Source: a virus (taxonomy: Duplodnaviria > Caudoviricetes). Taken from it: a stretch of DNA of 50,451 bases. The notes under the pieces were generated by a model that was not told the DNA's origin, did no database searches, and was given only the letters and a program-made list of their open reading frames with translations. Where the stretch lies: IMG/VR virus record IMGVR_UViG_3300043418_000062, positions 1 through 50,451 of that record; one strand, given 5' to 3'. A program made the position numbers and the translations under genes. Below are positions 3,068 through 50,202 of this stretch, one piece after another. Within the stretch, counting starts at the first letter, position 1; each line of letters starts with the position of its first letter.

Positions 3068-3153
3068 GCACCTTAGCAAGTGTCTAAAAGGCTACCAACT
3101 ATCCTGAAATGGATAGAGCGATATGAGACCCGAGCAAGTCGGTAAAAAGGCTC
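3068..3153 (+). ncRNA. Two tandem copies of a small H-type pseudoknot motif separated by a hairpin
   Basis: GCAC-CT-TAGC-AA-GTGT-CTAAAAG-GCTA and GAC-CC-GAGC-AA-GTC-GGTAAAAAG-GCTC. Confidence 0.65.
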
Positions 3154-3194
3154 ACTATAAACCTAACACACAACACCAGATAAAGGATAAACCA

Positions 3195-3428
3195 ATGACC
3201 GACTCATTCAACCTAAAGATTGACAGTTTCGAGGCACTAGTAGACCTTGAAATGGCACTAGATGGATATATAGATGACCTAAGCACCTATCGCTATCTCA
3301 ATGAGAATGAGACAGAGACACTAAACAACCTACTAGACCTACGAGAGCAAGTTGTCTCACAGCGCAAGCCGATTACCAAACAGCGCAAACTAATGCGACT
3401 ACTTCAAGAAGAATTGAGGGTAAGATGA
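3195..3428 (+). CDS. Early hypothetical protein
   Basis: Likely start MTDSF after AAGGA RBS. Confidence 0.75.
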   Translation: MTDSFNLKIDSFEALVDLEMALDGYIDDLSTYRYLNENETETLNNLLDLREQVVSQRKPITKQRKLMRLLQEELRVR

Positions 3429-3526
3429 TATTCTGTAAAGACTGCCACCATAAGCACTCACCATTCATAACCAGAATAAGTTTCTGTATAAGTTGTGGCT
3501 CAAACAACTTGACAAGCAAGCAATAA
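3425..3526 (+). CDS. 33-aa zinc-ribbon micro-protein (CKDC...CISC)
   Basis: Translated by hand; ATGA overlap. Confidence 0.55.
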   Translation: MIFCKDCHHKHSPFITRISFCISCGSNNLTSKQ

Positions 3527-3537
3527 CCTGCTATAAT
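3509..3537 (+). promoter_or_regulatory. Sigma-A-type early promoter
   Basis: TTGACA-17 nt-TATAAT, extended -10. Confidence 0.85.
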
Positions 3538-3580
3538 ATAAACATAACAAGACACACACACCAAACAAAGGATAACCAAA

Positions 3581-4126
3581 ATGCTAAAGCCAGACCTAAT
3601 GCTACAAGTTGATGACAGCAACCGTATTAGCGCTTATTACGACCAATATGGATATGCTTACGAGGATTTTGTAGGCGACACTATGGGAGTTTATACGCTA
3701 CGAATGGCACGCTTTATGGGCGATATCAAAGGTGGCGAACTAACCGAAGACCTAGACCGACTGACACGCAACACGAGCAACTGGCAACACGAGAGCGCAA
3801 TCGGTAAATACCTAGCAATCTCCGGTAAGCACTATCGCAAGATAACCCTACAAGGCTATTCACAAGGCGACTGGGCAGAAGTGTTTATCTATTCAGATGA
3901 TGACTGGGTGCTAGACAAAGACAGCGACAGCACACTTCAGGCGTGGTTCAAAGGCGATATCTTCACCGTTCACCACGAGCGACTAGAGACCTACACGAGC
4001 AACACCGACCCAAGCAACACAATCTCTCAATGGGAGACCGTAGACAGCCTAAGCGCCTGTATTGTCGAGAGCGAAGAAGACCTTGAGGCATATGTTTCAG
4101 ACTTCAACTTGACAATCGCTAAATAA
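3581..4126 (+). CDS. Early hypothetical protein (GYSQGDW motif)
   Basis: ORF behind promoter and RBS. Confidence 0.8.
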   Translation: MLKPDLMLQVDDSNRISAYYDQYGYAYEDFVGDTMGVYTLRMARFMGDIKGGELTEDLDRLTRNTSNWQHESAIGKYLAISGKHYRKITLQGYSQGDWAEVFIYSDDDWVLDKDSDSTLQAWFKGDIFTVHHERLETYTSNTDPSNTISQWETVDSLSACIVESEEDLEAYVSDFNLTIAK

Positions 4127-4137
4127 CCTGCTATAAT
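4109..4137 (+). promoter_or_regulatory. Sigma-A-type early promoter
   Basis: TTGACA-17 nt-TATAAT, extended -10. Confidence 0.85.
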
Positions 4138-4172
4138 CAACTCATAACAAACAAACACACAAGGAGACTACA

Positions 4173-4346
4173 ATGGCTAAGTATTACATTCAGGCAACCT
4201 ACGCTTACAGTGGAGAGGTTGAGGCAAACTCACCAGAAGAGGCTGAGAGCCTATTCTTAGATGACCTAAATATCTACTATGACGGCACTGATAGTTTCGA
4301 TATCGAAGAAGTTGAAGAAGATGAAGACACCGAGGAGACCGAGTAA
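4173..4346 (+). CDS. 57-aa acidic protein (VEANSPEEA motif)
   Basis: AAGGAG RBS; translated by hand. Confidence 0.7.
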   Translation: MAKYYIQATYAYSGEVEANSPEEAESLFLDDLNIYYDGTDSFDIEEVEEDEDTEETE

Positions 4347-4498
4347 TGACCGTTTATGTAAAGAAGAACGCAACCGTAATCGTGCGAGCTAAAAACTACA
4401 ATCACGCAATCAACATATTCGCCAGCAAAATGGGTTATGACCTTGAGTATGCTATTCTAAATGACGGATATACAATCGAAGTAGAGGAGACAATCTAA
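4346..4498 (+). CDS. 50-aa hypothetical protein
   Basis: TAATG coupling; translated by hand. Confidence 0.65.
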   Translation: MTVYVKKNATVIVRAKNYNHAINIFASKMGYDLEYAILNDGYTIEVEETI

Positions 4499-4668
4499 TG
4501 GCAATGACAATCGAGCAGGTTATCAAGTCAATCAAGTTTGAAATTGACCGAGCGCACCGAGACGCACAGATGTCTACAATTCAAGAAGACCTAGATTATC
4601 ACAATGGCGAATATGACGCACTAAACTTTATGCTAGAGATTATTGAGACAAGCAAGGAGAGCAACTAA
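4498..4668 (+). CDS. 56-aa hypothetical protein
   Basis: TAATG coupling; translated by hand. Confidence 0.65.
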   Translation: MAMTIEQVIKSIKFEIDRAHRDAQMSTIQEDLDYHNGEYDALNFMLEIIETSKESN

Positions 4669-4865
4669 TGGAATTCAGAATTCAGCAACGAGCAGAGATT
4701 TGGTATGAGACTACAATTGAAGCCGACACTTTTGAAGAAGCGGTTATCAAGGCTATTGAAGACTGCGACCTAGACTGGTCGAGCCTACCGGAAAGCGTGG
4801 AATTCCGAGACGAATTCTGGGGACAAGATGAAGACGGTAATGAGTATTCACAGAGGGAAGAATAA
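4668..4865 (+). CDS. Acidic hypothetical protein (IEADTFEEA motif)
   Basis: ORF with RBS; resembles 4173-4346. Confidence 0.75.
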   Translation: MEFRIQQRAEIWYETTIEADTFEEAVIKAIEDCDLDWSSLPESVEFRDEFWGQDEDGNEYSQREE

Positions 4866-4866
4866 G

Positions 4867-4959
4867 ATGATAGAGTGCCCTAAACACGAAGGCAGTTTCG
4901 ACTGCTCACCATTCTGTGAAATATGCGGTGGAGACCAAGAGATAGAGGAGCTAAACTAA
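4867..4959 (+). CDS. 30-aa Cys-rich micro-protein (MIECPKHEGSFDCSPFCEICGG...)
   Basis: Translated by hand; fills the operon gap. Confidence 0.65.
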   Translation: MIECPKHEGSFDCSPFCEICGGDQEIEELN

Positions 4960-5240
4960 TGAGCGTAGTCGAGATTACAGATGAAGATTTTGACGCTTAC
5001 GAGCCTATTGAAAACCACTTTCAAGAGGGAACGCAATTATTCGAGACCTACGGAGATGAATTAGAATTCGTTATCCAGCACAAGAAAGAGCATATCTGGA
5101 CACAGGTAGACGGTTATGACGGTATTTATATCGTGAACGGATATCAATTGGCAAACCGTATTGGCTACTATTTGACCAATAAACCCCACGACCCAAGCAA
5201 AGATATTCAACTACGAGTAATCACAGAGGAGACAATCTAA
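4959..5240 (+). CDS. Early hypothetical protein
   Basis: Likely start MSVVE after GAGGAG RBS. Confidence 0.75.
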   Translation: MSVVEITDEDFDAYEPIENHFQEGTQLFETYGDELEFVIQHKKEHIWTQVDGYDGIYIVNGYQLANRIGYYLTNKPHDPSKDIQLRVITEETI

Positions 5241-5404
5241 TGAGCGAATTCAACAACTGCCAAGACTGCTACGAGAGCCTACGAGGCGACTACGCACGAC
5301 TTGAGACTGGCAGATGTGAAGACTGCCAAGCAACACACGAACACAACACCTACGACCCAATGTTCGACGACAGGGCGTGGGATAACCAGAGAGAGGCTTA
5401 CTAA
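5240..5404 (+). CDS. 54-aa CxxC-CxxC micro-protein
   Basis: TAATG coupling; translated by hand. Confidence 0.65.
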   Translation: MSEFNNCQDCYESLRGDYARLETGRCEDCQATHEHNTYDPMFDDRAWDNQREAY

Positions 5405-5730
5405 TGACAAGCGAGTATGATATCCAATTCCTATTCGACTGGCACTACGGCGACGCTGTGCCAGTATGCCGAGCCTTTCACCTATGGCTAGATGTAGACG
5501 GACAATTCAACACCGATAACGACACTATTGTAGACCGCTACGAATTCACGCAGGAAGATATTGACTGGATTGTAGCCGAGAATGGATACGCAGATATCAG
5601 CGAACTAGAAGTAGACGAATGGTATACCTCAAGCGAGTGGCTGGAACACGCAGGTATGCCAAACGGGTTCAAGAATTGGGTTCGCAACCTTCCAGAATAT
5701 CAACCGTATCAGGAACTTGACATTCACTAA
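5404..5730 (+). CDS. Acidic hypothetical protein
   Basis: Coupled ORF. Confidence 0.75.
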   Translation: MTSEYDIQFLFDWHYGDAVPVCRAFHLWLDVDGQFNTDNDTIVDRYEFTQEDIDWIVAENGYADISELEVDEWYTSSEWLEHAGMPNGFKNWVRNLPEYQPYQELDIH

Positions 5731-5745
5731 CTATTGTGCTATAAT
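5717..5745 (+). promoter_or_regulatory. Sigma-A-type early promoter
   Basis: TTGACA-17 nt-TATAAT, extended -10. Confidence 0.85.
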
Positions 5746-5787
5746 ACTATTACACACACAGCAACACACTAACAAAGGAGAAATATT

Positions 5788-6315
5788 TTGGGTCTCGATA
5801 TGACTTTACACGCAACTAAGTATGTTCGTGGCACTGACTGGACACAGAACGCAGACGGCACTTACTCCGACTGGGACAATGCTGATTACGATACCGCAAT
5901 CGGTTCTATCGGACTTGACCGTAGTGATATCAATGTCAGCTATCCTTCTGTGAATATTGAAATCAAAGTAGCAGAGTGGCGCAAGGCTAACGCTATTCAC
6001 CAGTGGTTCGTGGACAATGTTCAGGGTGGCGAAGATAATTGCCGAGACTACTATGTTAGCCGAGATGACCTAATCGAATTGCGAGACCGTTGTCGAGAGG
6101 TTATTGATATGCGAGACCGACAGAACGCTAATCCAGATGAGATGTTGCCGACTGCCGAGGATATCCTGCCAACTACCGAGGGTTTCTTCTTTGGCTCAAC
6201 CGAGTATGATGAATGGTATTACGAGAACATTCAATATACGCTGGATACGCTAGACAACCTACTTACCAATCCTAAGTTTGGTGGCTTTGACTTCAACTAC
6301 TCAAGTAGCTGGTAG
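5788..6315 (+). CDS. Conserved phage protein of unknown function (MGLDM...WRKANAIH.WF...GFFFGS family)
   Basis: Motif pattern recalled from other phages; TTG start after AAGGAG. Confidence 0.75.
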   Translation: MGLDMTLHATKYVRGTDWTQNADGTYSDWDNADYDTAIGSIGLDRSDINVSYPSVNIEIKVAEWRKANAIHQWFVDNVQGGEDNCRDYYVSRDDLIELRDRCREVIDMRDRQNANPDEMLPTAEDILPTTEGFFFGSTEYDEWYYENIQYTLDTLDNLLTNPKFGGFDFNYSSSW

Positions 6316-6316
6316 A

Positions 6317-6496
6317 ATGTCTCAGCTAATCGAGGTCGAACTCACACAGAAACAAGTAGACCTGCTATTTCCAGCCTTGAAACAGGCAGAGAGCGCTTAC
6401 ACCGATGAAGGCAACTTCAAAGCGTGTAAGGCTCTCACCGAGATTTACAACTCACTACACAGACAGATTTACACTTATGGACAACTGGAGGAATAA
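6317..6496 (+). CDS. Hypothetical protein
   Basis: Likely start MSQLI. Confidence 0.65.
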   Translation: MSQLIEVELTQKQVDLLFPALKQAESAYTDEGNFKACKALTEIYNSLHRQIYTYGQLEE

Positions 6497-6699
6497 TGTT
6501 AGATATGGGCAACCTATGTGCTTGGTGTGGAGAAGACACCTCGTTTGGTTCAGGCAAGTTTGTAAACCGTATCCCTGTCGGGACTCACTTGAACACTACT
6601 ATCTGGGCAGATGCGCCAGAATACAAGGAGTATTCAGAGTGGACTGATGTGGAGTGCTACGGTTGTGAGGACTGCTACGCAGATGAGGAGGAGAACTAA
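6496..6699 (+). CDS. Small CxxC-containing protein
   Basis: Coupled ORF with GGAGG RBS. Confidence 0.7.
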   Translation: MLDMGNLCAWCGEDTSFGSGKFVNRIPVGTHLNTTIWADAPEYKEYSEWTDVECYGCEDCYADEEEN

Positions 6700-6899
6700 T
6701 GGCAGTATACGCGCTATACAGCAACAGCGACTCTACGCTTTACAAGGCGTTCACTAATAGAGCCGAGGCGCAAAAGGAACACTTTGAGACCGGCGCATAC
6801 AACGGCCTCAAGACCTACAAGCACCTAACTAAAGCACAGGTTGAGAAACTATCTTACACCGAGGCAACATTCTTTGAAATGGTAATGGAGGGCAACTGA
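6699..6899 (+). CDS. Hypothetical protein
   Basis: Coupled ORF. Confidence 0.7.
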   Translation: MAVYALYSNSDSTLYKAFTNRAEAQKEHFETGAYNGLKTYKHLTKAQVEKLSYTEATFFEMVMEGN

Positions 6900-7096
6900 T
6901 GAAAGTAAAGAAACCAAAGAAGCAGACTTTCAACGCCTACTATGTATCCGACTATGCTACGCTGGTAATGCGTATCAAAGGCAAGCGCGGTTGGGAAGAG
7001 AAAGACTTTATCAATGAGGCTGACCGTATTGTTCAGGCGTATATCAAGTATCCAGAACACTTTTTCAGCGATGACCTTCAGGAGGTAGAAGATTGA
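6899..7096 (+). CDS. Hypothetical protein
   Basis: Coupled ORF. Confidence 0.7.
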   Translation: MKVKKPKKQTFNAYYVSDYATLVMRIKGKRGWEEKDFINEADRIVQAYIKYPEHFFSDDLQEVED

Positions 7097-7446
7097 TTGA
7101 CCAAGATATCCTAGACAAGTATGATTTCAATGTCTATATCATAGACGGAGAGATTGGCTTGTATGCCTATCGCCAGAAGTATCAGACACACTCAAGCACC
7201 AAGACTGGAGTGCTACGCTATGTCGAGTGCGATACCTCGAACTACACCTCTGTGAAGTTTCCTCTGACGGTTCAGTATCACGAAGAGGTTGCTTACTTGC
7301 TTGACAACGAAGAGTGGCTAGACGAAGACCTTGAGAGTTGGGAAGAATATGACAACTGGGTCGGTCCTGAAGACTTGACAGAAGGCGATACACCTGCTAT
7401 AATCGCCTCATACCTAGAACATTTACCAGACTACGAATTGGAGTAA
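7093..7446 (+). CDS. Acidic hypothetical protein
   Basis: Coupled ORF with AGGAGG RBS. Confidence 0.7.
   Translation: MIDQDILDKYDFNVYIIDGEIGLYAYRQKYQTHSSTKTGVLRYVECDTSNYTSVKFPLTVQYHEEVAYLLDNEEWLDEDLESWEEYDNWVGPEDLTEGDTPAIIASYLEHLPDYELE
7375..7403 (+). promoter_or_regulatory. Sigma-A-type promoter embedded in a CDS
   Basis: TTGACA-17 nt-TATAAT, extended -10. Confidence 0.8.
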
Positions 7447-7448
7447 AT

Positions 7449-7946
7449 ATGAAGAAGAATAAAGATAGCGCACTGCTTGACAGTATTACCCTTTCTCGCA
7501 AGGTCGAGAAGATTGCGATTGCTGACGCTCGCCTCAAGGCTAGTGATTGGGTTCGTGAGCAGACCGAGGAAGAACATTCTAAGGTTCTTGACGCTGTGCG
7601 AGACGCACTGATTGCTGGCTACTCAGCACGACAGATTGGTATTGCCTATGGCTCGACTGACCCATATACAGCTAAACGCCTTGTAATGGAGGCACAGAAC
7701 AGCAGTAGCAAGTCATTCGTTGAGGCTATGGAAAACCACCCAGAGTGGCTTGTAGAGGTTCACGACACCGACCGCTTCACTATCAAGGCTTTCGCTCTAG
7801 GTGAGCAGAAGTTGTCGGGTGAGGGTCTATTCACAGTTGATGAAGACGGCGAGAACTTTACGCAGATTGACGGAGATAGTTTCATTCAGGTTCAGATGTA
7901 TCGTCTAGGACTTGTTGAGCAGGTATTGGAGGAGGTTCGTGGATAA
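7449..7946 (+). CDS. Hypothetical protein, possible HTH DNA-binding
   Basis: ALIAGYSARQIGIAYG resembles an HTH. Confidence 0.55.
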   Translation: MKKNKDSALLDSITLSRKVEKIAIADARLKASDWVREQTEEEHSKVLDAVRDALIAGYSARQIGIAYGSTDPYTAKRLVMEAQNSSSKSFVEAMENHPEWLVEVHDTDRFTIKAFALGEQKLSGEGLFTVDEDGENFTQIDGDSFIQVQMYRLGLVEQVLEEVRG

Positions 7947-8184
7947 TGAAGAACTTGAAGAACTTATGGAAGCAACTGCTTCGGTCGCTGATTACTTTAG
8001 CGACATCACTGGTAGCAGTATTTATGTGGGCGCTGATGTTGGTGGCGATGTCTGGATTAGTAGCAATAGAACTAATGGCAAAGAGTATCTTGAGAGCCTT
8101 CAAGAAGCCGAGCGCAGACTAGAACTGCTTTATAGTGAACACTTTGATGATGACGACACTGACCCTTATGGAGGATTAATTTGA
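7939..8184 (+). CDS. Acidic hypothetical protein
   Basis: GTG start after GGAGG, overlapping the previous stop. Confidence 0.6.
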   Translation: MDNEELEELMEATASVADYFSDITGSSIYVGADVGGDVWISSNRTNGKEYLESLQEAERRLELLYSEHFDDDDTDPYGGLI

Positions 8185-9548
8185 GACCAAAACTATCTAA
8201 ACTAACGCTAGAGACAGAGCAAGAGAAAGCGGTTGCTCGTATCGTAGCAGAACCAACTCGCTCTGCCTTGAACGCAAGTTTGATGGGAACTGGTAAGACG
8301 CTTATGGGCGTTGAGGTTGTCAAGAGGCTGGGAGCTAAGACTGTGCTAATCATTGGCCCACTAAACACCTACTGGGGCTGGTGGGACACCATTCAGCGAC
8401 AGACTGAGTATGGCTCAGATATCTCTCGTATCAACTCAAGCAAAGAAGGCAAGGAAGCGTATCAGCAACTAGCCTCAGGCAAGTCTGGCTGGTATTTTGT
8501 CGGTCGTGAGTATTTTAGAACACTAGACTGGACTAAGATTGTTCCTGACGCTGTGCTAGTTGATGAGTGCCACTTTGCTCAGAACCGAGCTAGTAAGTCG
8601 TTCAAGGTGCTAAAGACGCTGAACGCTGGCTTCAAGTTATCAATGTCAGGAACTCCGTCTGGCAACCGCTTCGAGGGTTTCTGGGCTGTGTCTCGTTTCC
8701 TATGGAAAGACACTAACATTATTGATAAGTCATATTGGAAGTGGGTTGAGAAGTGGTGTCGAACCGGCTACTCGCCTTTTAGCCAAGTTGAAATTCTTGG
8801 TGAGCGTAATTCAGGTGCGTTTGTAAACTCGCTACCTTGCTATGTTCGCCTTGAGACCAATCACAATCTTGAGGTTGTCGAAGAGACTCGCTATGTAGAC
8901 CTAGTGCCAGCACAGAGAAAGATTTATGAGAAGTTTCAGCGAGACCTCGTTGTCTGGCTGGGTGAGAACCCAATGGTTGCTGAAGTGCCTATCGCGGCTC
9001 GTATTCGACTACGACAGATGACCTTAGCTGTGCCTAGTATTACCGATGAAGGTGAAGTTATCTTTGAGCAAGATGCTAAGTCTACTAAGTTTCAGGCGCT
9101 TCAAGAGATTATCGAAGATAATCCAAATGATGCTATGTTGCTATTGACAGATAGCCAAAAGTATGCTAAACTCGTCACAGATAGATTGAACGCAAGCAAG
9201 ACAACTCCGGTTGCTTTTGAGTGGTCGGGCAAGGCAAGCCAAGCTAATCGCGAGATTGCCAAGCAGGCTTTTCTAAAGCGAGACCTGAAGTATATCGTAG
9301 CGGTTATCCCAGCTATTGCTGAAGGTGTAGACGGACTACAAGATGCATGTTCGACTATCGTGTGGCTATCTCACTCAGATAGTAACCTTATGAACCAGCA
9401 GGTTGTTGAGCGTATCCGTCGTCGTGGCCAGAAAGATGTTGTAAAGATTTATGACATCGTGGCTCGTGATACTTACGATGAGGGCCAGCTATCAACGCTA
9501 CTACAGAGACAATTGGAGATGAACGCAAGTCTAAAGAAAGAGGTTTAG
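8181..9548 (+). CDS. Superfamily 2 (SNF2-like) DNA helicase
   Basis: MGTGKT Walker A, DECH, SGTP, EGVDGLQ and QVVERIRRRGQ motifs. Confidence 0.9.
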   Translation: MRPKLSKLTLETEQEKAVARIVAEPTRSALNASLMGTGKTLMGVEVVKRLGAKTVLIIGPLNTYWGWWDTIQRQTEYGSDISRINSSKEGKEAYQQLASGKSGWYFVGREYFRTLDWTKIVPDAVLVDECHFAQNRASKSFKVLKTLNAGFKLSMSGTPSGNRFEGFWAVSRFLWKDTNIIDKSYWKWVEKWCRTGYSPFSQVEILGERNSGAFVNSLPCYVRLETNHNLEVVEETRYVDLVPAQRKIYEKFQRDLVVWLGENPMVAEVPIAARIRLRQMTLAVPSITDEGEVIFEQDAKSTKFQALQEIIEDNPNDAMLLLTDSQKYAKLVTDRLNASKTTPVAFEWSGKASQANREIAKQAFLKRDLKYIVAVIPAIAEGVDGLQDACSTIVWLSHSDSNLMNQQVVERIRRRGQKDVVKIYDIVARDTYDEGQLSTLLQRQLEMNASLKKEV

Positions 9549-9549
9549 T

Positions 9550-9783
9550 ATGGAGATTATGGAATACATTGTGACATATACTTGTATGGCACTTATCCTT
9601 GGCCCTGTTGCCTATGGAGTATTCGTGATAGCACTAGCACCGCTTGCCGCTTTCTTTGCTTCGCCAAGCACAGCTACCACCAGCAAGCCTGCTGTGAACC
9701 GCAACAACAGGGTTTACGGACAGCCTAACGCAAAGTCTTACATTCGCGTAAGAACACACGCCTACGACTACGACGAGGACTAA
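9550..9783 (+). CDS. Small membrane protein
   Basis: Hydrophobic N-terminal half. Confidence 0.65.
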   Translation: MEIMEYIVTYTCMALILGPVAYGVFVIALAPLAAFFASPSTATTSKPAVNRNNRVYGQPNAKSYIRVRTHAYDYDED

Positions 9784-9810
9784 TGAGCAAGATGAATGAA
9801 CAGTGGCTAG

Positions 9811-10116
9811 ATGAGCAATATAACTGGCCAGCAATCGGAGAACTTAAGGAGAGTAATGAACGAGAATAATGTGCAAGCAATCAATGAATATATGGACTGG
9901 TTGCGAGACAAGCGGATGCATCCACCGACAGGCTCGCCTGAAGAGTGGCTTGAGGAACAGCTGAACACAGACGCACGAAAGCGACTAAACCTGCTATCTG
10001 ACTACTTGCTAAACCTTGATGAGTTGCTTGATAGCGACTACTCAGAGGTGCTAGTAAAAATCCATTCTTTTGTATTTGACCCATTGGAGGTAATTGAAGA
10101 TGACCCAGGAGTATAA
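9811..10116 (+). CDS. Hypothetical protein
   Basis: ORF in operon; start uncertain. Confidence 0.65.
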   Translation: MSNITGQQSENLRRVMNENNVQAINEYMDWLRDKRMHPPTGSPEEWLEEQLNTDARKRLNLLSDYLLNLDELLDSDYSEVLVKIHSFVFDPLEVIEDDPGV

Positions 10117-10639
10117 CAAGGTAGTTGATTACTACCCAGTTGTGAATGATAACGACATTGAAGCTGGATATAAAAAACTGGCCGAAGACCCAGAAATGAA
10201 TGAAAGACGGAAGACTGCTCGTATCAATCCTGACTCTATCCCTGTGCTTGGAACGGCAGTTGTGCTTGTCACAATCTTGATGGTCTCATCATTCGCTGTT
10301 TCATTCAGTGGCATCTATGAGGTGTCAGCGTGGACTGGTATTCCTAAGTTCATTCAATGGCTACCTGCGCTATTTATCGATGCTGCAATTCTGGCATATA
10401 CTATCTCACTTATCGTGTTTAAAGCTCGTGGTGAATCGACTTGGAGGACACTACTTGGGCTATCTGGTTTCGCTTTGGTATCTATCTTTGCTAACGCTAC
10501 TCACACAATCGCTTATTGGGATGGGTCTTTGGCCGATTACCGCGCTTGGATGGGCGTTGTTATTACTGCCTCTGCTCCAATTGCTGTCCTACTTGCTTCA
10601 GAAGAGATTACGCGATTGGCTTTCAAGGGAGAGAACTAA
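10094..10639 (+). CDS. Four-TM membrane protein, DUF2637-like
   Basis: FAVSF...WLPALFID...SIFANATH...APIAVLL pattern. Confidence 0.65.
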   Translation: MKMTQEYNKVVDYYPVVNDNDIEAGYKKLAEDPEMNERRKTARINPDSIPVLGTAVVLVTILMVSSFAVSFSGIYEVSAWTGIPKFIQWLPALFIDAAILAYTISLIVFKARGESTWRTLLGLSGFALVSIFANATHTIAYWDGSLADYRAWMGVVITASAPIAVLLASEEITRLAFKGEN

Positions 10640-10977
10640 TGAGTAAGCCTTTTGGCATGGCATGGCCAGTTGATATGACAAATGATGTGACACTAAATCA
10701 GTTTCGCCCTTATAAAGATTCAGATGAAACTCACTATTGGATTGACATTCATGGGGGCAAGGTTCCCCTTACAAAGGAACAGTTTATAGCGATGCACGAT
10801 GCAAGGATTCAACTTTGGGATAAGGCTACCGAGTATGCTGAGGACCGCATTATCAAACTGCTAGAGGATGCTCAAGTAACTGAAGCAGAACTTTTTGATG
10901 GCAGAACTATCAAAGTCAAATCTCAATCAGTCAGGGCCGACCTTCTTATTGAACTTATCAAGGGAGAGAACAAGTGA
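10639..10977 (+). CDS. Hypothetical protein
   Basis: Start MSKPF by TAATG coupling. Confidence 0.65.
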   Translation: MSKPFGMAWPVDMTNDVTLNQFRPYKDSDETHYWIDIHGGKVPLTKEQFIAMHDARIQLWDKATEYAEDRIIKLLEDAQVTEAELFDGRTIKVKSQSVRADLLIELIKGENK

Positions 10978-11171
10978 GTAAACCTGATTGGGCTGAACGC
11001 TTACAGAGGACATTTAAACGTAAGTATCAGCAAGGTTATCAAGATGGCTGGAACGAGGCTACACAAGCCTACAAAGGCTATTTAGTAATGACACCAGCAC
11101 TACTCGAAGACTACAAGCGACAGGCTCGCAAGGAGGAATATGACAGACTACAAATTCAAAAAGAAACCTAG
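10974..11171 (+). CDS. Hypothetical protein
   Basis: Coupled ORF. Confidence 0.6.
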   Translation: MSKPDWAERLQRTFKRKYQQGYQDGWNEATQAYKGYLVMTPALLEDYKRQARKEEYDRLQIQKET

Positions 11172-11628
11172 AGGCACACACTGCTCTAAGGGTCACGAAT
11201 TCACAGATGACAACACATTCATCCGAGCATATGACAACGCTCGTGTATGTCGTGAGTGTCGCAAGCAGTATGCTAGAGAGAAGTATCAGCGCAACAAGGA
11301 TAAGAACGGTGGAGTTGCTCGACCTCGCAAGGATAAAATCCAGATGTTTGAGCTATCCGAATCTATACCAGTGCTTGACAAAGCAGAGAAAGCGTGGTAT
11401 GATTTACAGGCAGGACTTGCAGAAAACAAGACACCTTGCCTTGGTAAAGCAGAAGATTACGCTGACTATTCATCATTCAAGTCTGCTGATGAAGCAGAAG
11501 AGATGTGTTATGGATGTCCACTAATCAAGCAGTGCTACGACTTCGCTGTGCTTAATGAAGTCAATGCTGGTATCTGGGGAGGAATTGTTATGGATGAGGG
11601 AGGAAGTGTTTTATTTGACGTTATCTGA
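11140..11628 (+). CDS. whiB: WhiB-like Fe-S transcription factor fused to an N-terminal Cys/His zinc-binding module
   Basis: C-x22-CxxC-x5-C plus GIWGG; N-terminal THCSKGH...NT...CRECR. Confidence 0.8.
   Translation: MTDYKFKKKPRGTHCSKGHEFTDDNTFIRAYDNARVCRECRKQYAREKYQRNKDKNGGVARPRKDKIQMFELSESIPVLDKAEKAWYDLQAGLAENKTPCLGKAEDYADYSSFKSADEAEEMCYGCPLIKQCYDFAVLNEVNAGIWGGIVMDEGGSVLFDVI
11375..11403 (+). promoter_or_regulatory. Internal sigma-A-type promoter
   Basis: TTGACA-17 nt-TATGAT with TG extension. Confidence 0.65.
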
Positions 11629-12316
11629 TGCACAAGTAAAGCAGATGGTTGTAGACCTATTTCTACAGAAGTCTGAAAGAGATAAGCAACACAAGGTCGG
11701 AGCGTCAAATATCTCAGACCCATGCACGAGACACTTGGCTCACGCATTACTTGGAACTCCGGAAGCGGAGCAAAAGTATTGGATGGGTGGCAAGATTGGA
11801 ACGGCTATTCACAGTTTCCTTGAGGATGCTATCGAGAAAAGTAATGACAGTCTTCTTGATGGCGCAATTGTTGAGCAGAAGATTGAATTAGGTCACATCA
11901 AAGGTTATGGCGATGTATCAAGCAAGCCAGACCTTGTGCTACCTAATGCACGTCACTTGCTAGACTGGAAAACATCTAGCCGAGCTAAGGTCAAGAAGAT
12001 GCAGAACTTAACTCACGGACTGAAGAACTATCCAGACTCAGCCTACACGCTGAAGAAATATATCGGCCAGGCTCAGTTATACGCTTGGGGACTAAACAAC
12101 TCAGGCATCCCAATTGACCGAACTACTTTGGTGTTTCTAAATCGAGATGGCACTAATGCCAATGACATCTGGACTTACTCTGTGGATTACAGTGAAGAAA
12201 TAGCGCTTGCGCTGTGGAATCGAGTTAGTAATCTATGGGCCGAGTTAGAGAGTGGTGCTCATCCTGACAGCTACACCGCAACCGAGCACTGCTACAAATG
12301 CTCTGTTGGAATTTAA
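11555..12316 (+). CDS. Cas4/RecB-like PD-(D/E)XK exonuclease
   Basis: GASNISDPC, GTAIH, PD...DWKT, QAQLY and C-terminal CYKC; true start probably near 11606-11615. Confidence 0.85.
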   Translation: MKSMLVSGEELLWMREEVFYLTLSDAQVKQMVVDLFLQKSERDKQHKVGASNISDPCTRHLAHALLGTPEAEQKYWMGGKIGTAIHSFLEDAIEKSNDSLLDGAIVEQKIELGHIKGYGDVSSKPDLVLPNARHLLDWKTSSRAKVKKMQNLTHGLKNYPDSAYTLKKYIGQAQLYAWGLNNSGIPIDRTTLVFLNRDGTNANDIWTYSVDYSEEIALALWNRVSNLWAELESGAHPDSYTATEHCYKCSVGI

Positions 12317-12340
12317 CGACACGCCGATAAACGCACATAT

Positions 12341-12369
12341 TTGACTACAAGAATCATATGTGTTATAAT
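12341..12369 (+). promoter_or_regulatory. Sigma-A-type promoter with upstream CGACACGCC motif
   Basis: TTGACT-17 nt-TATAAT, TG extension; CGACACGCC at 12317-12325. Confidence 0.8.
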
Positions 12370-12401
12370 ATCTACTCAACAACAATTCTTTAGGAGGAAT
12401 A

Positions 12402-13130
12402 ATGAGTTCAGAATTTCCCGAACTAGCATTTGCTCAGTTCATTCACAAGGCAGAAGCCTTGAACGCACCGAAGAGCATCTTGCTTTACGGTGACGCAGGT
12501 CGAGGTAAGACTTGGCTTGCAGCATCAATCTCAGCAGTCGAGGAATACAATCCTGTACTACTAATTGACGTAGAGGGTGGCGCATCAGCTATCGCTCGTG
12601 ACTGGAAGAACGTAGACGTAATTAACATTACGACCCACGAGCAGTTCCAGTCTGTGATGGATGGTTTGCTAAACACTCCGCACAAGTACAAGACGGTAAT
12701 CATTGACACAATCGGTGTTGTGATGGACCGAGCAGAGAAGTTCTTTGGTGAGAAGCCGGAGAACAAGAGTAACAAGTTTGGTCGCTGGGGCGACCTAAAG
12801 AACTGGGCTAACGAGGTCTTCCGAGCGTTGCACACTGCATCGTTCGTAAGCATCCTGCTTGCCCACGCTCTTGATGACAAGGATGAAAACACTGGCGCAG
12901 TAAAGACAACAGCCATGCTTCCAGGTTCATTCAAGAGCACACTCCCTTCAATTCCAGACATCGTTGGATATCTTGGTGTAGAAAACACTGAAGAAGGTCC
13001 ACAGCGAGTTCTGGTCGTTGGACAGTCTGACCGATTGGTAACCAAGAACCGCTTTGGTTTGCCACCGAAGATTTACCAGCCAACCATGAAGGGCATCATC
13101 GACACTATCAATCAAGGAGGTAACAAATAA
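12402..13130 (+). CDS. AAA_24 / Sak4-like ssDNA-annealing ATPase
   Basis: YGDAGRGKT Walker A, IDVEGG, VIIDT, KNRFGLP; adjacent to nuclease and SSB. Confidence 0.85.
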   Translation: MSSEFPELAFAQFIHKAEALNAPKSILLYGDAGRGKTWLAASISAVEEYNPVLLIDVEGGASAIARDWKNVDVINITTHEQFQSVMDGLLNTPHKYKTVIIDTIGVVMDRAEKFFGEKPENKSNKFGRWGDLKNWANEVFRALHTASFVSILLAHALDDKDENTGAVKTTAMLPGSFKSTLPSIPDIVGYLGVENTEEGPQRVLVVGQSDRLVTKNRFGLPPKIYQPTMKGIIDTINQGGNK

Positions 13131-13615
13131 TGAGCAACATTCAGTTCAACATTTCACAGGAGGCGCTAGACGCTTCAGCATCATCAGACTACACCCCGAT
13201 TCCAGAGGGTAGCTACAACGCTACAATCTTTGAAATCAAGCAGGAGTTCGTGAAGTCTGGTCCAAACGAGGGTAAGCCTCGCTTTAACATCCAGTTCCGC
13301 CTATCAGATGCACCATACGCTAACCGTCGTGTATTTGGTTACGTTGCGTTGTATGCAGCAGGTGACTTCTGGAAGACCAAGGCGTTCTTCTCTGCTCTTG
13401 GTATCGACATGGCAGCTGGTACATTCACTGTGCCAGACGCTCAAGACCTACTAGGCAAGCCAATCGGTGTGCGTGTCAAGGTGGGGAAAGACCAGAACGG
13501 CGCTGACCGCAATGAGGTAGCAGGCTTTGATAAAGCCACCTCAGGCAGTGCCGCTGACGCAGTGATGGCATCGGTGGGCGCAACTCCGGTTGCCTCGTCA
13601 GGTAACGTCTGGTAA
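13130..13615 (+). CDS. Single-stranded DNA-binding protein (DUF669-like)
   Basis: YTPIPEGSYNATI...DLLGKPIGVRV...RNEVAGF pattern. Confidence 0.75.
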   Translation: MSNIQFNISQEALDASASSDYTPIPEGSYNATIFEIKQEFVKSGPNEGKPRFNIQFRLSDAPYANRRVFGYVALYAAGDFWKTKAFFSALGIDMAAGTFTVPDAQDLLGKPIGVRVKVGKDQNGADRNEVAGFDKATSGSAADAVMASVGATPVASSGNVW

Positions 13616-13629
13616 AAGTCCCAATGGGC

Positions 13630-13659
13630 AGTCCTGAGACATGACTTAAAACTGTCTCA
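13630..13659 (+). ncRNA. Small H-type pseudoknot motif, copy 3
   Basis: AGTC-CT-GAGAC-AT-GACT-TAAAACT-GTCTC. Confidence 0.65.
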
Positions 13660-13662
13660 CAA

Positions 13663-13737
13663 GCCCCTACTGGAGTTACACGCTTTTCTCTCTCCTCCTT
13701 TGTGTGTGTAGTCTGAGTTCGATTCTCAGCCGGGGCA
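13663..13737 (+). ncRNA. tRNA-like RNA with an anti-SD pyrimidine loop in place of the anticodon
   Basis: GCCCC/GGGGC-A acceptor; CTGAG-TTCGATT-CTCAG T arm; TACACGC/GTGTGTA stem with a 20-nt loop containing CTCCTCCTTT. Confidence 0.6.
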
Positions 13738-13772
13738 CGTTGTGGCAAAGCATGGTGTGTTATAATTATAAT

Positions 13773-14198
13773 ATGAGAAATGAATATTATAAAACATATA
13801 TGAAGAACCGCAGACTACAGCGAAGAACAATGCTTTTAGAGTTATCTGGTAATAAATGTTCAGTGTGTAGTTCTAGTGATAATCTAGAATTTAACCATAT
13901 TGATAGAGCTAGTAAATTATTTGTTCTTAGCGGTAAGGGTTTAGATAAAAAAATAAATGACATTCTACTTGAGCACAAAAAGTGTGAGCTACTATGCTCA
14001 AAATGCCATCTAGATAAAACTAGACATCAATATGCAACAAAGCAAATCAAAATCTGGAACGATAGAAAAGATGAGCCATATCTTCATGGTACAGCTCGTA
14101 ACTACCATGAAAATGCTTGTAGATGTGCTGATTGTAAATATGCAAAAAAATTATATAGAAATAAAGAAGTAGATTTATGGACTCAGGTTTATAAATAA
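13773..14198 (+). CDS. HNH homing endonuclease (AT-rich, probably leaderless)
   Basis: CSVC...LEFNHID...CELLCSKCH; C-terminal HGT..Y...CRCADC; TGT-TATAAT 6 nt before the ATG. Confidence 0.85.
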   Translation: MRNEYYKTYMKNRRLQRRTMLLELSGNKCSVCSSSDNLEFNHIDRASKLFVLSGKGLDKKINDILLEHKKCELLCSKCHLDKTRHQYATKQIKIWNDRKDEPYLHGTARNYHENACRCADCKYAKKLYRNKEVDLWTQVYK

Positions 14199-14204
14199 AC
14201 TCAT

Positions 14205-14279
14205 TCCTGAATAGCAATCTAGGCGAGTGCGCCGAGCTGTTAACTCGGAGATAGGTTGGTTCGAATCCAACTTCAGGAG
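14205..14279 (+). tRNA. tRNA-Asn (GTT)
   Basis: TCCTGAA/TTCAGGA acceptor; CCGAG-CTGTTAA-CTCGG anticodon arm; TTCGAAT T loop. Confidence 0.9.
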
Positions 14280-14651
14280 CAAGGGCAAGCCATGTCCCCT
14301 TAGCCTATCAACTTGTTGTATAGGTAATCATGGCAAAGGGATAGGCAGACCAGCCGGCTTTAGGTCTGAGGGGAAACAACCCCCGTCTGATTCCCATCAA
14401 GGGCTGAACTGCTTGAGCATCGTCAAGATAGCAGTGAGATGGTTTCCGTATGGTTGCCAAGGGTGCAATTCCTTATCAGCCCACAAACGGTATTGCTGCT
14501 CAATAGGTTCGCTAGAGCCTAACGATTACGGATACCGGACCTGTAACCCATTGCTGCGGCAGGTTACGGGTTACCCGCCTCTGGGCGCATGTCTGCGGTT
14601 CGTCACTGTTCAGCACCCCGTAAGGGCATAAGCCATGCGCCCAGAGTGCAC
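14280..14651 (+). ncRNA. Structured non-coding cassette between the two tRNAs
   Basis: Successive long stems, a possible pseudoknot and a tRNA-like element; no credible ORF. Confidence 0.55.
14401..14483 (+). ncRNA. tRNA-like element with non-canonical D and anticodon region
   Basis: GGGCTGA/TCAGCCC-A 7-bp acceptor; T-arm-like AGGG-TGCAATT-CCTT. Confidence 0.55.
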
Positions 14652-14724
14652 GCCACCTTAGCTCCAATGGTAGAGCGCCGCCTTTGTAACGCGGATGTTA
14701 TCGGTTCGAGTCCGATAGGTGGCT
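14652..14724 (+). tRNA. tRNA-Thr (TGT)
   Basis: GCCACCT/AGGTGGC acceptor; GCTC/GAGC D stem; TTTGTAA anticodon loop; TTCGAGT T loop. Confidence 0.9.
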
Positions 14725-14754
14725 CGGAGAGATACTAATAACGAAGGAGGATAT

Positions 14755-19416: not shown

Positions 19417-19424
19417 GAGGAATA

Positions 19425-19799: not shown

Positions 19800-19814
19800 A
19801 AATAAGGAGGAAAT

Positions 19815-44398: not shown

Positions 44399-44413
44399 TT
44401 ACTTTTCCTTTTC

Positions 44414-46924: not shown

Positions 46925-46978
46925 TAAAAAGTCCTTAAAAAGTAGTGTAATACTATTGTATCACACATTCAGGACAGT

Positions 46979-48484: not shown

Positions 48485-48489
48485 TAGGC

Positions 48490-49011
48490 TTATTCTTCTA
48501 CAATTTCATTCTTAGCGTGTTGCAAGCCTTCTGCAACAAGCTCTTCAAGCTCGCCCCTGGTAATCTGAGGGTAACGCTCTTCTAGCTGGTCCTTTGCGAA
48601 AGTCAGTGCAGTGTCCATAGCTCGCAGCAGCACACGCTCCTGGAACTGGGTCAGCTTTATCATATTCTCATCTAGTGCCTGCTGCTGCCCATCAAGGCGC
48701 TTGCCGATAGTCTCCAGAGTCTTTAGCATCAAACGCTGGCTATCCAGGTCACCGCCCTTAGACTGCTCCTGTAGCTGGTTCTTCAAATCATGTAGCTCAG
48801 TTAATAGCAGCTGACGTTGTTCATGCTCAGTCCATACGTTGCGGGTCTGAAGCAACTGTTTAACATGATGCACAGCCTGGGCAGCAGGAATACCTGTCAT
48901 ACGCTCCATCTCGGCACCTGACTTACCTCCAGCAGCTGCCTTAATCAGGATGTCATCTAGTAGAGCAATTTGATTGTGTGAGCCTGTTGAGCTTAGTGGA
49001 TATGATGCCAT
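48490..49011 (-). CDS. Putative terminase small subunit
   Basis: HTH-like N-terminus; helical; immediately upstream of terL. Confidence 0.55.
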   Translation of the reverse strand: MASYPLSSTGSHNQIALLDDILIKAAAGGKSGAEMERMTGIPAAQAVHHVKQLLQTRNVWTEHEQRQLLLTELHDLKNQLQEQSKGGDLDSQRLMLKTLETIGKRLDGQQQALDENMIKLTQFQERVLLRAMDTALTFAKDQLEERYPQITRGELEELVAEGLQHAKNEIVEE

Positions 49012-49236
49012 TTACAAACCTTTATTCCAGACTAGCTTCTGCGCTTCAAACTGAATACGAGCTTCTGTGAGTGTAGTCTCTAGTTTCTCAACTTTATTCA
49101 CAAGGTCGTTATGGCGGTTGATTAGTTCCTGAACAACCTGCTGCATCTCATATACCATTTCAAGGGCTTCGTTTAGCTCCTGCTGTGTGTTAGCTGATTC
49201 TTCTGGTAGTGGTGCGTCTGTTAATCCGCGTGACAT
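49012..49236 (-). CDS. Coiled-coil hypothetical protein
   Basis: AAGGAG RBS. Confidence 0.7.
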   Translation of the reverse strand: MSRGLTDAPLPEESANTQQELNEALEMVYEMQQVVQELINRHNDLVNKVEKLETTLTEARIQFEAQKLVWNKGL

Positions 49237-49299
49237 TTGTGCTCCTTGAATGTTTTAAAAATTATGCGAAAAAAATTTGAGGTAGGTGTTTTGAGGTGT

Positions 49300-49527
49300 T
49301 TAAACTTCCAGGCGATATGTTTGAATAGCCTCATCCAGTATATCCCAGGTATCATAGTCGCCAGACATCTCAAAGTACACAATGTCGCAGTCACCTGTTG
49401 ATGGGTCGCAGAAGGTAGCTCGCCATACCTCGGTTTGAGTCGGGTCGTCTATAGTAGCTGGGTCGTGGATGTCTAGTGACATGGTGAAGTCACCGATGCC
49501 TGACATTGAAACTGTTATTTCGCTCAT
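49300..49527 (-). CDS. Acidic hypothetical protein (leaderless)
   Basis: TGG-TAAGAT 6 nt before the ATG. Confidence 0.6.
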   Translation of the reverse strand: MSEITVSMSGIGDFTMSLDIHDPATIDDPTQTEVWRATFCDPSTGDCDIVYFEMSGDYDTWDILDEAIQTYRLEV

Positions 49528-49626
49528 CTTGCTATCTTACCACATAAATGTTGGTTGTAGCAAAAATAGGGGCAAAAAATTTTGGAAATTTGAGAAAATG
49601 GGTGTGGTGGTGCCGCCGCTTAAAAA

Positions 49627-49642
49627 CCGAACACCTGTTCGA
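49627..49642. promoter_or_regulatory. Actinobacterial LexA (SOS) box, one mismatch
   Basis: CCGAAC-ACCT-GTTCGA versus consensus TCGAAC-N4-GTTCGA. Confidence 0.65.
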
Positions 49643-49670
49643 ATAAAATGATTTCTTTGAGGCTCGACAT

Positions 49671-49686
49671 TCGAACGCTTGTTCGA
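49671..49686. promoter_or_regulatory. Actinobacterial LexA (SOS) box, perfect match
   Basis: TCGAAC-GCTT-GTTCGA. Confidence 0.75.
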
Positions 49687-49902
49687 GAGCGACACGCCTA
49701 AAGCCCAGTAATGACGGGGATTTTGGGAATTTTGGCGTTTCGATTTGCGCTTTCGGTTCGAGTGTGCTTTGATTTGAGTATGTTGATTTTCCGAAATCGA
49801 GTAGGCGGTTCGCAGGTTTATCCCGCGAACGAGCAACGGCTTAGTTTCAAAAATTTCTTCATCGGCGCTTAGGCGTTTGACAATTCAACAGTGGACCAGC
49901 CC

Positions 49903-49953
49903 TCGTTAGGGCTTTACTTTGCCCGATAGGCGGGCAAGGTAATCACCTAACGA
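49903..49953 (+). other. Long hairpin in the leader of the first early gene
   Basis: TCGTTAGG/CCTAACGA outer stem and 12-bp TTACTTTGCCCG/CGGGCAAGGTAA inner stem. Confidence 0.7.
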
Positions 49954-49964
49954 AAGTTGAAATT

Positions 49965-50168
49965 ATGATTACGAACGCAAAGACCGCTAAGAACTCGACT
50001 ATTGAAGAACTAATCGAGTGGCTAGAAGTCGGACACCGACTAGCAGGGCGCGCCAATTACTACACCGTCGAGGCTGTAGAGCGTAGACTTACACGCCTAA
50101 CCACTTCAGAGGTTTCGCCAGAGCAAATTGAACGAATTTCAAAAGCAATTCAGAGCGCCGACTACTAA
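49965..50168 (+). CDS. Early hypothetical protein
   Basis: ORF with GAAAG RBS. Confidence 0.7.
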   Translation: MITNAKTAKNSTIEELIEWLEVGHRLAGRANYYTVEAVERRLTRLTTSEVSPEQIERISKAIQSADY

Positions 50169-50175
50169 GCCAACT

Positions 50176-50202
50176 GACCTAGGCAAGTCGCTAAACTGCC
50201 TA
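50176..50202 (+). ncRNA. Small H-type pseudoknot motif, copy 4
   Basis: GAC-CT-AGGC-AA-GTC-GCTAAACT-GCCT. Confidence 0.65.

Follow-up and report, generated by a model that had tools for sequence, protein, structure and literature searches.

Four short motifs on the + strand of the virus genome IMGVR_UViG_3300043418_000062, a complete record of 50,451 base pairs (bp) with direct terminal repeats that was analysed at its full length (hereafter, the window), are compact H-type pseudoknots on early mRNA, and they are of three different standings. Site 4, to judge by its sequence, is a clear member of a widespread and unnamed phage pseudoknot motif of about 26 nucleotides (nt). The position of this motif is fixed relative to stop codons and not to any gene. 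Site 3 is the 5′ module of a composite RNA that continues into a tRNA/tmRNA-like domain behind a gene for a DUF669 SSB-like protein. Sites 1 and 2 are weak copies that have recently been gained or lost and are dispensable. Although folds of this type are known, Rfam 15 and the searchable literature contain neither family. We hold these structural statements with high confidence.

Four pseudoknots and a stop-proximal family

Each of the four sequences reported in an earlier note on this DNA is present, with the segments claimed for it, where the note had placed it (Table 1). Scanned for the structure, the + strand yields these four and no others, and the − strand, with the same linkers, none. 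The descriptor, which was written post hoc, comprises a stem 1 (S1) of 3–5 bp, a loop 1 (L1) reading CY, a stem 2 (S2) of 4–6 bp, a loop 2 (L2) of 1–2 nt and a loop 3 (L3) of 5–9 nt containing AAA. It gives four + strand matches against a mean of 0.42 in 300 dinucleotide shuffles, none of which reaches four. The structure alone is common, with 21–31 matches of at least 8 bp per strand in the window and in four of five relatives and 12–14 in the fifth, G005. No copy is significant in nested folding energy (z from −1.44 to +0.72; ViennaRNA, which cannot model pseudoknots). As had been claimed, all four copies are intergenic and lie on the coding strand. The gap from the stop codon is 4–5 nt at site 1, 14 nt at site 3 and 7 nt at site 4, where the codon is the TAA of the open reading frame (ORF) at 49965–50168; site 2 stands in tandem, 32 nt after site 1. 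The promoter and terminator calls in the window overlap none of the copies, and a promoter reading of the motif was rejected, the phage promoters lying elsewhere.

The four sites had been presented as copies of one pseudoknot; in modelling they do not form one sequence family. Model R2, a pseudoknot model built from 13 site-3-type copies of relatives (15 less L090 and L095, which MAFFT misaligned), finds only site 3; sites 1, 2 and 4 are not found at E ≤ 10 with filters off. Model R3, built from 76 stand-alone copies on other contigs and containing no window sequence, finds site 4 and misses site 3, and its matches to sites 1 and 2 fall among matches at background level. Two extra R3 matches, on the − strand at 19664 and 37554, were rejected, being without the 3′ strand of S1 and in or antisense to coding sequence. 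We conclude that the four copies share architecture and linkers, not detectable sequence homology. A further suggestion, that in three copies the 5′ flank offers an alternative partner for the 3′ strand, stands in part. There is an exact partner at site 2 (GAGC at 3116); the one at site 1 (TAGC, 3066–3069) overlaps the pseudoknot, and none exists at sites 3 and 4.

A pattern that fits both site 4 and the copy in the relative G003 matched 29 stretches in unrelated-looking contigs of 4–185 kb. All 29 are preceded by GA, which is not part of the pattern, and the fourth S1 pair is Watson–Crick in 22 of 28 contexts against 10.6 expected, a count reached by none of 2000 shuffles. In a second scan of IMG/VR, with two central S2 pairs freed, at least 106 distinct contexts were obtained; the counts given for the family from here on are among the matches listed. 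Both freed pairs are Watson–Crick in 97 of the 106 contexts, where chance would give 1 in 16. The combinations are AG/CT (59), GG/CC (28), GA/TC (4), GT/AC (3), AT/AT (2) and AA/TT (1). GA stands in front of all 97 paired contexts, and six of the other nine are without it. The family consensus is GAC-CU-ARNCA-A-GUC-NN-UAAA-NN-GNYU. The motif stands in intercistronic RNA, as a rule with a single copy in a genome.

The proximity to stop codons noticed in the window proved, from the gap counts of the wide family, to be the sharpest property of the motif. An upstream ORF of at least 40 amino acids (aa) ends within 80 nt in 84 of the 97 contexts, and the gap between stop codon and motif is 6–10 nt in 54 of these (6 nt, 21; 7 nt, 13; 8 nt, 9; 9 nt, 4; 10 nt, 7) and shorter than 6 nt in only four. 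The stop codon is TAA in 60 cases, TAG in 18 and TGA in six. The next start codon lies within 60 nt in 58 of the 97 contexts, at distances that are flat over 6–45 nt. There is no link to a particular gene, the upstream ORFs falling into 55 clusters and the downstream ORFs into 42; the flanks are G-poor and without conserved sequence. In seven contigs (L150, L153, L155, L158, L161, L168 and L171) the motif lies exactly 6 nt past an ORF of 297–399 codons and is directly followed by a promoter-like TTGAC(A) ... TATA(T/C)A.

Copies were also found in unannotated spacers of five cultured phages, namely Ma-LMM01 (a Microcystis phage), Moraxella phage Mcat1, Lactobacillus phage Lj965, Clostridium phage phiCT19406B, in which S1 is ACAC/GUGU, and Acaryochloris phage A-HIS1; each of the five has one copy per genome. 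The cultured hosts span cyanobacteria, proteobacteria and Firmicutes, and BLAST matches were found in Roseobacter and L. plantarum phages as well. A 45-nt query, of low sensitivity, gave no match in E. coli genomes. Among five whole genomes related to the window, stand-alone copies number one in G002, two in G003, one in G004 and none in G001 and G005. Compared with G002, G003 has two extra genes with the extra copy between them. Within 49900–50451, the nucleotide similarity of the window to G003 is confined to 50176–50222, that is, to the pseudoknot and its leader, at 83%.

For sites 3 and 4, the proposal of a selected RNA fold outside all named families is borne out by their fully paired relatives, the covariation and the null result with Rfam 15. 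The evidence for the fold was chosen independently of the fold: model R1, described below, holds S2 and not S1, and the central S2 pairs were freed in the search pattern. The Rfam check that had been suggested was run. At the gathering threshold the whole window gives only two tRNAs, and there is no match around sites 1/2, 3 and 4 at E ≤ 10 or for the five cultured-phage copies at E ≤ 5. Searches of the literature returned no report of the motif, of a phage RNA combining a tRNA-like domain with a pseudoknot or anti-Shine-Dalgarno sequence, or of a DUF669-associated RNA; the IMG/VR catalogue of 10,006 candidate RNAs (PMC10690425) may list these elements in its supplements.

The composite RNA of site 3 and the weak copies at sites 1 and 2

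Among 29 loci fetched via the DUF669 protein, conservation after the stop codon of the SSB-like gene reaches far past the 29-nt pseudoknot. The conserved unit is a composite RNA of about 125 nt. From 5′ to 3′ it consists of AAUGGGC, the pseudoknot, a linker of 3–4 nt, a 7-nt strand, YNGG and a helix with a pyrimidine-rich loop (CUCCUCCUUUGU); these are followed by a GTTCGAWTC T-arm, the complement of the 7-nt strand and A-C. At site 3 the linker is 4 nt and the loop is CCUCC-rich. L1 in this family is CU, CC, GG or GC, and L2 also varies.

Model R1, which holds S2 and the three distal helices without S1, finds exactly one strong copy per genome in the relatives and, after a wider pattern search, 46 matches, of which 33 are distinct. 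All 33 have a pseudoknot that pairs throughout, about 12 S1 and about 12 S2 pairings being represented; in all 33, moreover, it ends 3–4 nt before the acceptor stem and the whole RNA is preceded by a DUF669 SSB gene. At least 9 bp are formed in 28 of 28 distinct 5′ segments as against 24 of 2800 shuffles. Over 35 distinct rows of the alignment, 86.6% of cells are paired, compared with 72.8% after shuffling (none of 500 reaches the observed value) and 28–45% in slid controls, and changes on both sides are seen at 21 of 27 pairs. Pairing amounts to 90.4% in S1, which R1 does not see, 90.2% in S2, 83% in the acceptor, 78% in helix P2 and 96% in the T-stem. All seven acceptor pairs change on both sides, and the T-loop is invariant. 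The MAFFT and covariance-model alignments place the pseudoknots of GG type 2–3 columns off, so that the alignment pair counts understate the pairing; the pseudoknot statistics of those rows come from our own parser.

The acceptor stem of 7 bp is stacked on a perfect 5-bp T-stem arm with a TTCGAWT loop, and a discriminator base is present. The D-arm is replaced by a GG segment of 5–9 nt, and P2 closes a pyrimidine-rich loop of 13–35 nt that holds no ORF. As to a tRNA or tmRNA identity, ARAGORN calls only tRNA-Asn and tRNA-Thr in the window and not this domain, and Rfam gives no tRNA or tmRNA match over 13600–13770 at E ≤ 10. A tRNA-Asn lies 60–140 nt downstream in nine of 13 relatives scanned, and no tRNA is present in the four GG-type relatives; where CT-type relatives were scanned for tRNAs, the composite RNA heads a tRNA array. 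With a tRNA-Asn so shortly downstream, tRNA processing enzymes should act at site 3. The gap from the stop codon is 9–14 nt in the composite RNA, which has no ORF after it.

Two ways of finding members were discarded. About half of the matches to the pattern CTCCTTTGT..GTTCGA are ordinary tRNA-Thr(UGU) genes, and a heuristic acceptor finder admitted true tRNAs; membership was taken from R1 instead. A pattern scan of genome contigs gave three chance matches, none of them matched by R1.

The loop CUCCUCCUUU of the window copy resembles the 3′ end of 16S rRNA. In the GG-type loci L008, L014, L017 and L021, a gene with a strong AAGGAGGA Shine-Dalgarno sequence about 40 nt past the domain could pair with the loop; such pairing is not general, the window having no such site. 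The GC-rich contig L054 carries at 580–636 a related CCUCC-loop and T-arm (partial R1 match, 18.7 bits); additional hairpins separate its acceptor strand from P2, and a pseudoknot of the site-3 type is lacking. Between the tRNA-like domain and tRNA-Asn of the window is an AT-rich ORF of 132 aa (13800–14198) with CxxC...NH...CxxCH, HNH endonuclease-like by eye; L002, which is 99% identical, differs right after the domain. The GC-rich spacer between tRNA-Asn and tRNA-Thr (14281–14651) is 371 nt long, where relatives have about 114 nt; it shows no Rfam match at E ≤ 1 and patchy similarity to relatives.

Sites 1 and 2 are lacking in the sister phage L073, while the flanks are 94.5% and 90.4% identical (blastn and pairwise alignment). 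Site 2 has a rival CCGA/UCGG hairpin. The 34-aa ORF in front of site 1 has homologues in L073 (97% identity), G004 (68%) and G002 and G003 (59%). In the relatives, the place after its stop codon is either empty or taken by a different structured insert (hairpins in G004 and G003). It is possible that sites 1 and 2 are decaying copies.

Table 1. Positions of the pseudoknots and associated features in the window
Feature	Position	Strand	Remarks
34-aa basic (lysine/arginine/alanine-rich) ORF	2959–3063	+	TAG precedes site 1; no Pfam or PHROG match
Indel block: site 1, hairpin, site 2, leader	3063–3227	+	About 39 nt instead in sister phage L073
Site 1, (G)CAC-CU-UAGC-AA-GUG(U)-CUAAAAG-GCUA	3068–3094	+	Weak, divergent, 3+4 bp; partial R3 match, 9.5 bits, E about 1
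Hairpin CUAUCC-UGAAAU-GGAUAG	3099–3116	+	Between sites 1 and 2
Site 2, GAC-CC-GAGC-AA-GUC-GGUAAAAAG-GCUC	3127–3153	+	Weak, divergent, 3+4 bp; R3 11.6 bits, E 0.25
Sigma-70-type promoter TTGACT-17-TATAAT	12341–12369	+	Heads the Sak4-like / SSB / pseudoknot / tRNA-like unit
DUF669 SSB-like gene	13130–13615	+	PF05037, PHROG SSB families; 29 related loci
AAUGGGC directly 5′ of pseudoknot	13623–13629	+	Conserved in most members; absent from G002/G003, L093 and G005
Site 3, AGUC-CU-GAGAC-AU-GACU-UAAAACU-GUCUC	13630–13658	+	5′ module of composite RNA; R2 54.2 bits
tRNA/tmRNA-like domain	13663–13738	+	46 R1 matches, one per genome
tRNA-like acceptor	13663–13669 with 13730–13736	+	
tRNA-like CUGG segment	13670–13677	+	
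Helix P2	13678–13683 with 13702–13707	+	
P2 loop, CUCCUCCUUU	13684–13701	+	Pyrimidine-rich
T-arm	13713–13729	+	Domain ends with A13737, C13738
67-aa ORF	49965–50168	+	Stop precedes site 4; no PHROG family, no significant Pfam match
Site 4, GAC-CU-AGGCA-A-GUC-GCUAAAC-UGCCU	50176–50201	+	R3 47.9 bits, E 1.9e-11
Leader from site 4 to ATG 50233	50202–50232	+	G/U-poor, A/C-rich

Early transcripts and possible functions

The + strand carries small early genes and replication genes (from about 49,400 to the end and 1–21,378) and the − strand the structural genes. Annotated + strand genes (Pfam, PHROG) are those for endonuclease VII, an SNF2-type helicase, a Sak4-like AAA_24 protein, the DUF669 SSB-like protein and a DUF3987 primase. 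A terminal repeat of 127 bp (1–127 and 50325–50451) spans a + strand gene start at 50352/27. Sequencing runs that contain at least half of the phage's words are freshwater or freshwater-sediment metagenomes, and megablast of 20 kb of the window against deposited phages found no close one. Five perfect sigma-70 promoters, TTGACA-17-TATAAT, lie in the + strand early region (2266–2294, 3509–3537, 4109–4137, 5717–5745 and 7375–7403), four of them with an extended −10 TG, together with four further 11-of-12 matches (at 537, 627, 11375 and 12341). In the promoter/terminator scan, intrinsic terminators are nearly lacking on this strand. With few terminators and many consensus promoters, the transcripts must be shaped by processing.

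RNA library X3 contains 98% of sampled window words. The depth of its contigs over 1–20,000 ranges from 130 to 1354. The top value is that of the contig at 12404–13503 (Sak4/SSB), which starts about 35 nt past the promoter at 12341. Contig depth cannot rank genes, and 1354 over Sak4/SSB against 130–852 elsewhere is a weak hint. The stretch 13504–13789 is not covered among the X3 pieces listed and carries no inference. In relatives, RNA-library contigs extend from the end of the SSB gene into the pseudoknot. The RNA runs are assembled contigs, in which presence in RNA libraries can be seen, not ends, strands or levels.

We tentatively favour a role for the pseudoknot in protecting or processing RNA ends. 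It would be an autonomous module, stabilised by its own loops, placed in the first nucleotides uncovered by a terminating ribosome so as to stay folded during upstream translation, and it would mark and protect an RNA end. For site 3 we envisage a cut by host RNase P between 13662 and 13663, at the 5′ end of the tRNA-like domain; the Sak4/SSB mRNA would then end in pseudoknot-ACAA-3′ and resist 3′ exonucleases. After endonucleolytic cleavage, stand-alone copies would protect the end of a neighbouring cistron. The lower bound on the gap, 6 nt, matches how far a terminating ribosome reaches past the stop codon, which suggests an element built to stay folded behind a translated gene. The gap peak near this bound and the flat distance to the next start fit placement as near as the ribosome permits. 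The different inserts found after the 34-aa ORF are as expected of interchangeable 3′ structures, and a position set by the stop codon and not by a gene points to core host machinery. The motif may, in broader terms, be a new class of cis-acting RNA punctuation read by the ribosome or RNase P, with MALAT1-style capping of mRNA 3′ ends in one group, and this too we put forward with reserve.

Several observations weigh against end protection. The RNA evidence consists of contigs, which show no RNA ends. A single copy in each of the five cultured phages is odd for a general stabiliser, which would be expected after many genes. The loop letters CU, A and UAAA are strongly conserved, partly because the search patterns imposed them, and this suggests a specific partner rather than mere stability; 8–10 bp may not suffice to halt RNase R or PNPase. 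Conservation at site 4 covers the pseudoknot and the downstream leader and not the upstream sequence, favouring a role in a 5′ untranslated region. GG-type relatives have the composite RNA without a tRNA array, sites 1 and 2, absent from L073, can be dispensed with, and site 1 falls under the lower bound of the family.

The spacing would also suit a pseudoknot held at the mRNA entry channel with the stop codon in the A site, controlling release, recycling, sliding or reinitiation. The gap peak of 6–8 nt (43 of 84 contexts) is the spacing used by recoding pseudoknots; a universal partner would explain both the conserved loops and the occurrence in phages of cyanobacteria, proteobacteria and Firmicutes, and a start codon is often nearby. 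However, the gaps fall off from the lower bound in a long tail (30 of 84 lie beyond the range of 6–10 nt) and show no sharp optimum, the composite RNA has its longer gap and no following ORF, and in one group of contexts the element is followed by a promoter instead of a start codon; we consider this coupling to the ribosome rather unlikely. The same spacing could indicate a recoding signal for read-through or frameshifting at the stop codon, a reading largely ruled out by closed frames and mixed stop codons and barely credible. Each of the three stop codons occurs before the element, reading on in frame would add a median of 12 codons, the frame of the downstream gene is closed across the element in 46 of 53 contexts, and by eye no slippery heptamer is present at the window copies. 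The conserved loop letters could instead define the site of a specific host or phage protein, as a translational operator of the T4 gene 32 kind or a nut-like antitermination site. An unstructured leader of 24–41 nt precedes the start codon at sites 2 and 4 and at 46744 and 47066 of G003, much as the T4 gene 32 operator has a pseudoknot and an unstructured leader (PMC10690425). Moreover, an SSB gene accompanies site 3, the ORF ahead of site 4 is the first one past the divergent control region, and a basic 34-aa ORF adjoins site 1. Yet the flanking genes share no family, so that a phage-encoded partner would be encoded elsewhere; the SSB gene is upstream of site 3, not downstream, L073 keeps the 34-aa gene without sites 1 and 2, and L1 is GG in some site-3 relatives. 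A protein site is therefore, in our judgement, unlikely.

The pseudoknot might itself be a minimal tRNA-mimic substrate of RNase P, cut in L1 after U, with the S2 hairpin stabilising the downstream RNA. L1 ends in U, the usual N−1 base at RNase P cleavage sites, and A directly follows S2 in 53 of 97 contexts; RNase P is universal, and site 3 is joined to a tRNA-like domain. On the other side, the S1+S2 stack of 7–10 bp is shorter than the 12-bp acceptor-T arm of tRNA, and no CCA is conserved after the element, ACCA/AACCA being found only at window sites 1 and 4. There is a precedent in a small H-type pseudoknot that bacterial RNase P cuts in loop 1, with helix 2 as acceptor stem, and that known substrate needed an RCCA trailer (PMC12710915). 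We regard cleavage of this kind as quite improbable for the phage motif. The H-type topology, A-rich L3 and short L1 recall a small-molecule riboswitch of preQ1-I-like topology, which is very improbable given the absence of an Rfam match at E ≤ 10, the L2 of 1–2 nt, the variation of L1 and L2 in the site-3 family, a Shine-Dalgarno sequence that is not part of S2 and the unrelated upstream genes. A ligand aptamer and an antitoxin mimic, both entertained as functions in the earlier note, look unlikely; a nuclease roadblock, a protein or ribosome site and an antitermination site are candidate functions. A chance origin, or a signal at the DNA level (a promoter or protein-binding site, for instance), would be in keeping with the commonness of the structure alone and with the 7 bp, marginal scores and lack of folding support of sites 1 and 2. 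But both stems covary while the loops are fixed, 35 distinct matches lie on the + strand against 13 on the − strand, and the phage has its clear consensus sigma-70 promoters elsewhere. Pairing against shuffles and covariation exclude chance and a DNA signal for sites 3 and 4, and for the motif at large these two readings hardly deserve credence.

Two unannotated RNA families have thus come from one observation, and both RNAs are small enough for direct biochemistry and structural work. The stop-proximal motif offers a testable handle on how phages organise polycistronic mRNAs. The Sak4-like/DUF669 SSB recombination module has recently been found to counter CRISPR (PMC13687109), and over-expression of its SSB is toxic, so that an RNA setting the end or stability of that mRNA would be biologically relevant. 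If end protection at site 3 is true, bacteria would gain a MALAT1/mascRNA-style way of making and capping mRNA 3′ ends, by means of a D-armless tRNA-like RNA with an anti-Shine-Dalgarno-like loop.

Comparison with known systems

At the 3′ end of MALAT1, RNase P cuts at mascRNA and a stabilising structure lies upstream (PMC8457004). Site 3 is like MALAT1 and MEN-beta in that a compact A-rich tertiary structure lies a few nucleotides from a tRNA-like element, the expected substrate of RNase P, and in that the upstream RNA would end in a protective structure. MALAT1 differs in being a eukaryotic nuclear long non-coding RNA, in which a U-A-U triple helix captures an A-rich 3′ end and there is no H-type pseudoknot; cleavage in the phage is predicted, and the stand-alone copies are without a tRNA-like partner. 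The upstream pseudoknot domain and tRNA-like structure of plant viruses likewise place a pseudoknot immediately 5′ of a tRNA mimic, past the last ORF. The plant-virus structure is the 3′ terminus of an RNA genome, with a CCA end that is aminoacylated and a pseudoknotted acceptor stem. The phage acceptor, in contrast, is a plain helix of 7 bp within the transcript of a DNA phage; A-C follows it, the sequence diverges from there on, and no CCA is encoded. The tRNA-like domain of tmRNA has a GG-containing segment in place of the D-arm; it shares this with the site-3 RNA, as well as the 7-bp acceptor, the discriminator A and the GTTCGAWTC T-arm. The anticodon-loop region of tRNA-Thr(UGU) resembles the 3′ end of the site-3 loop, CCUUUGU. 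Against a tRNA or tmRNA identity, the site-3 RNA lacks a D-arm and a 7-nt anticodon loop, and it has neither a tag reading frame nor G3-U70.

The gene 32 RNA of T2 and T4 (cited in PMC10690425) resembles the phage motif as a small H-type pseudoknot linked to an SSB gene, and the stand-alone copies in its unstructured leader running to the ribosome-binding site; its pseudoknot is 5′ of the SSB gene, whereas site 3 is 3′ of an unrelated DUF669 SSB gene. The placement of a gene 32-type operator is not found there, as the SSB start overlaps the Sak4-like stop, leaving no leader, and the pseudoknot comes 14 nt past the SSB stop. Luteoviral frameshift pseudoknots of the beet western yellows virus type and the preQ1-I aptamer are 26–34 nt long, with a short L1, a brief junction and an A-rich L3 over a short S1. 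The phage motif shares this size, short L1, short junction and A-rich L3, a likeness that suggests loop–stem triples and high stability for its size. Unlike the luteoviral elements, which have a slippery heptamer 5–9 nt upstream, it is preceded by a stop codon and not by a slippery site, and there is no open shifted frame. The preQ1-I aptamer has an L2 of 4–6 nt with a ligand-pairing C, whereas the L2 of 1–2 nt in all phage copies is too short for a ligand pocket. The corresponding Rfam family, RF00522, gives no match at the gathering threshold or at E ≤ 10 (sites 1/2, 3 and 4) or at E ≤ 5 (five cultured-phage copies).

Tandem repeats of about 36 nt of the type III toxin–antitoxin (ToxI-like) kind are not what is found, the copies being single or 59 nt apart and non-identical; the neighbouring genes are unscreened for ToxN-like proteins. 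The PeSL cassettes of T4-type phages are mobile regulatory modules made of a sigma-70 promoter and a terminator hairpin (PMC2839356). The phage module differs from them in being a pseudoknot, with the promoters lying elsewhere. It is like them in being a short conserved intergenic module tied to the gain and loss of genes, as seen in the indel between the window and L073 and in the cassette that distinguishes G003 from G002.

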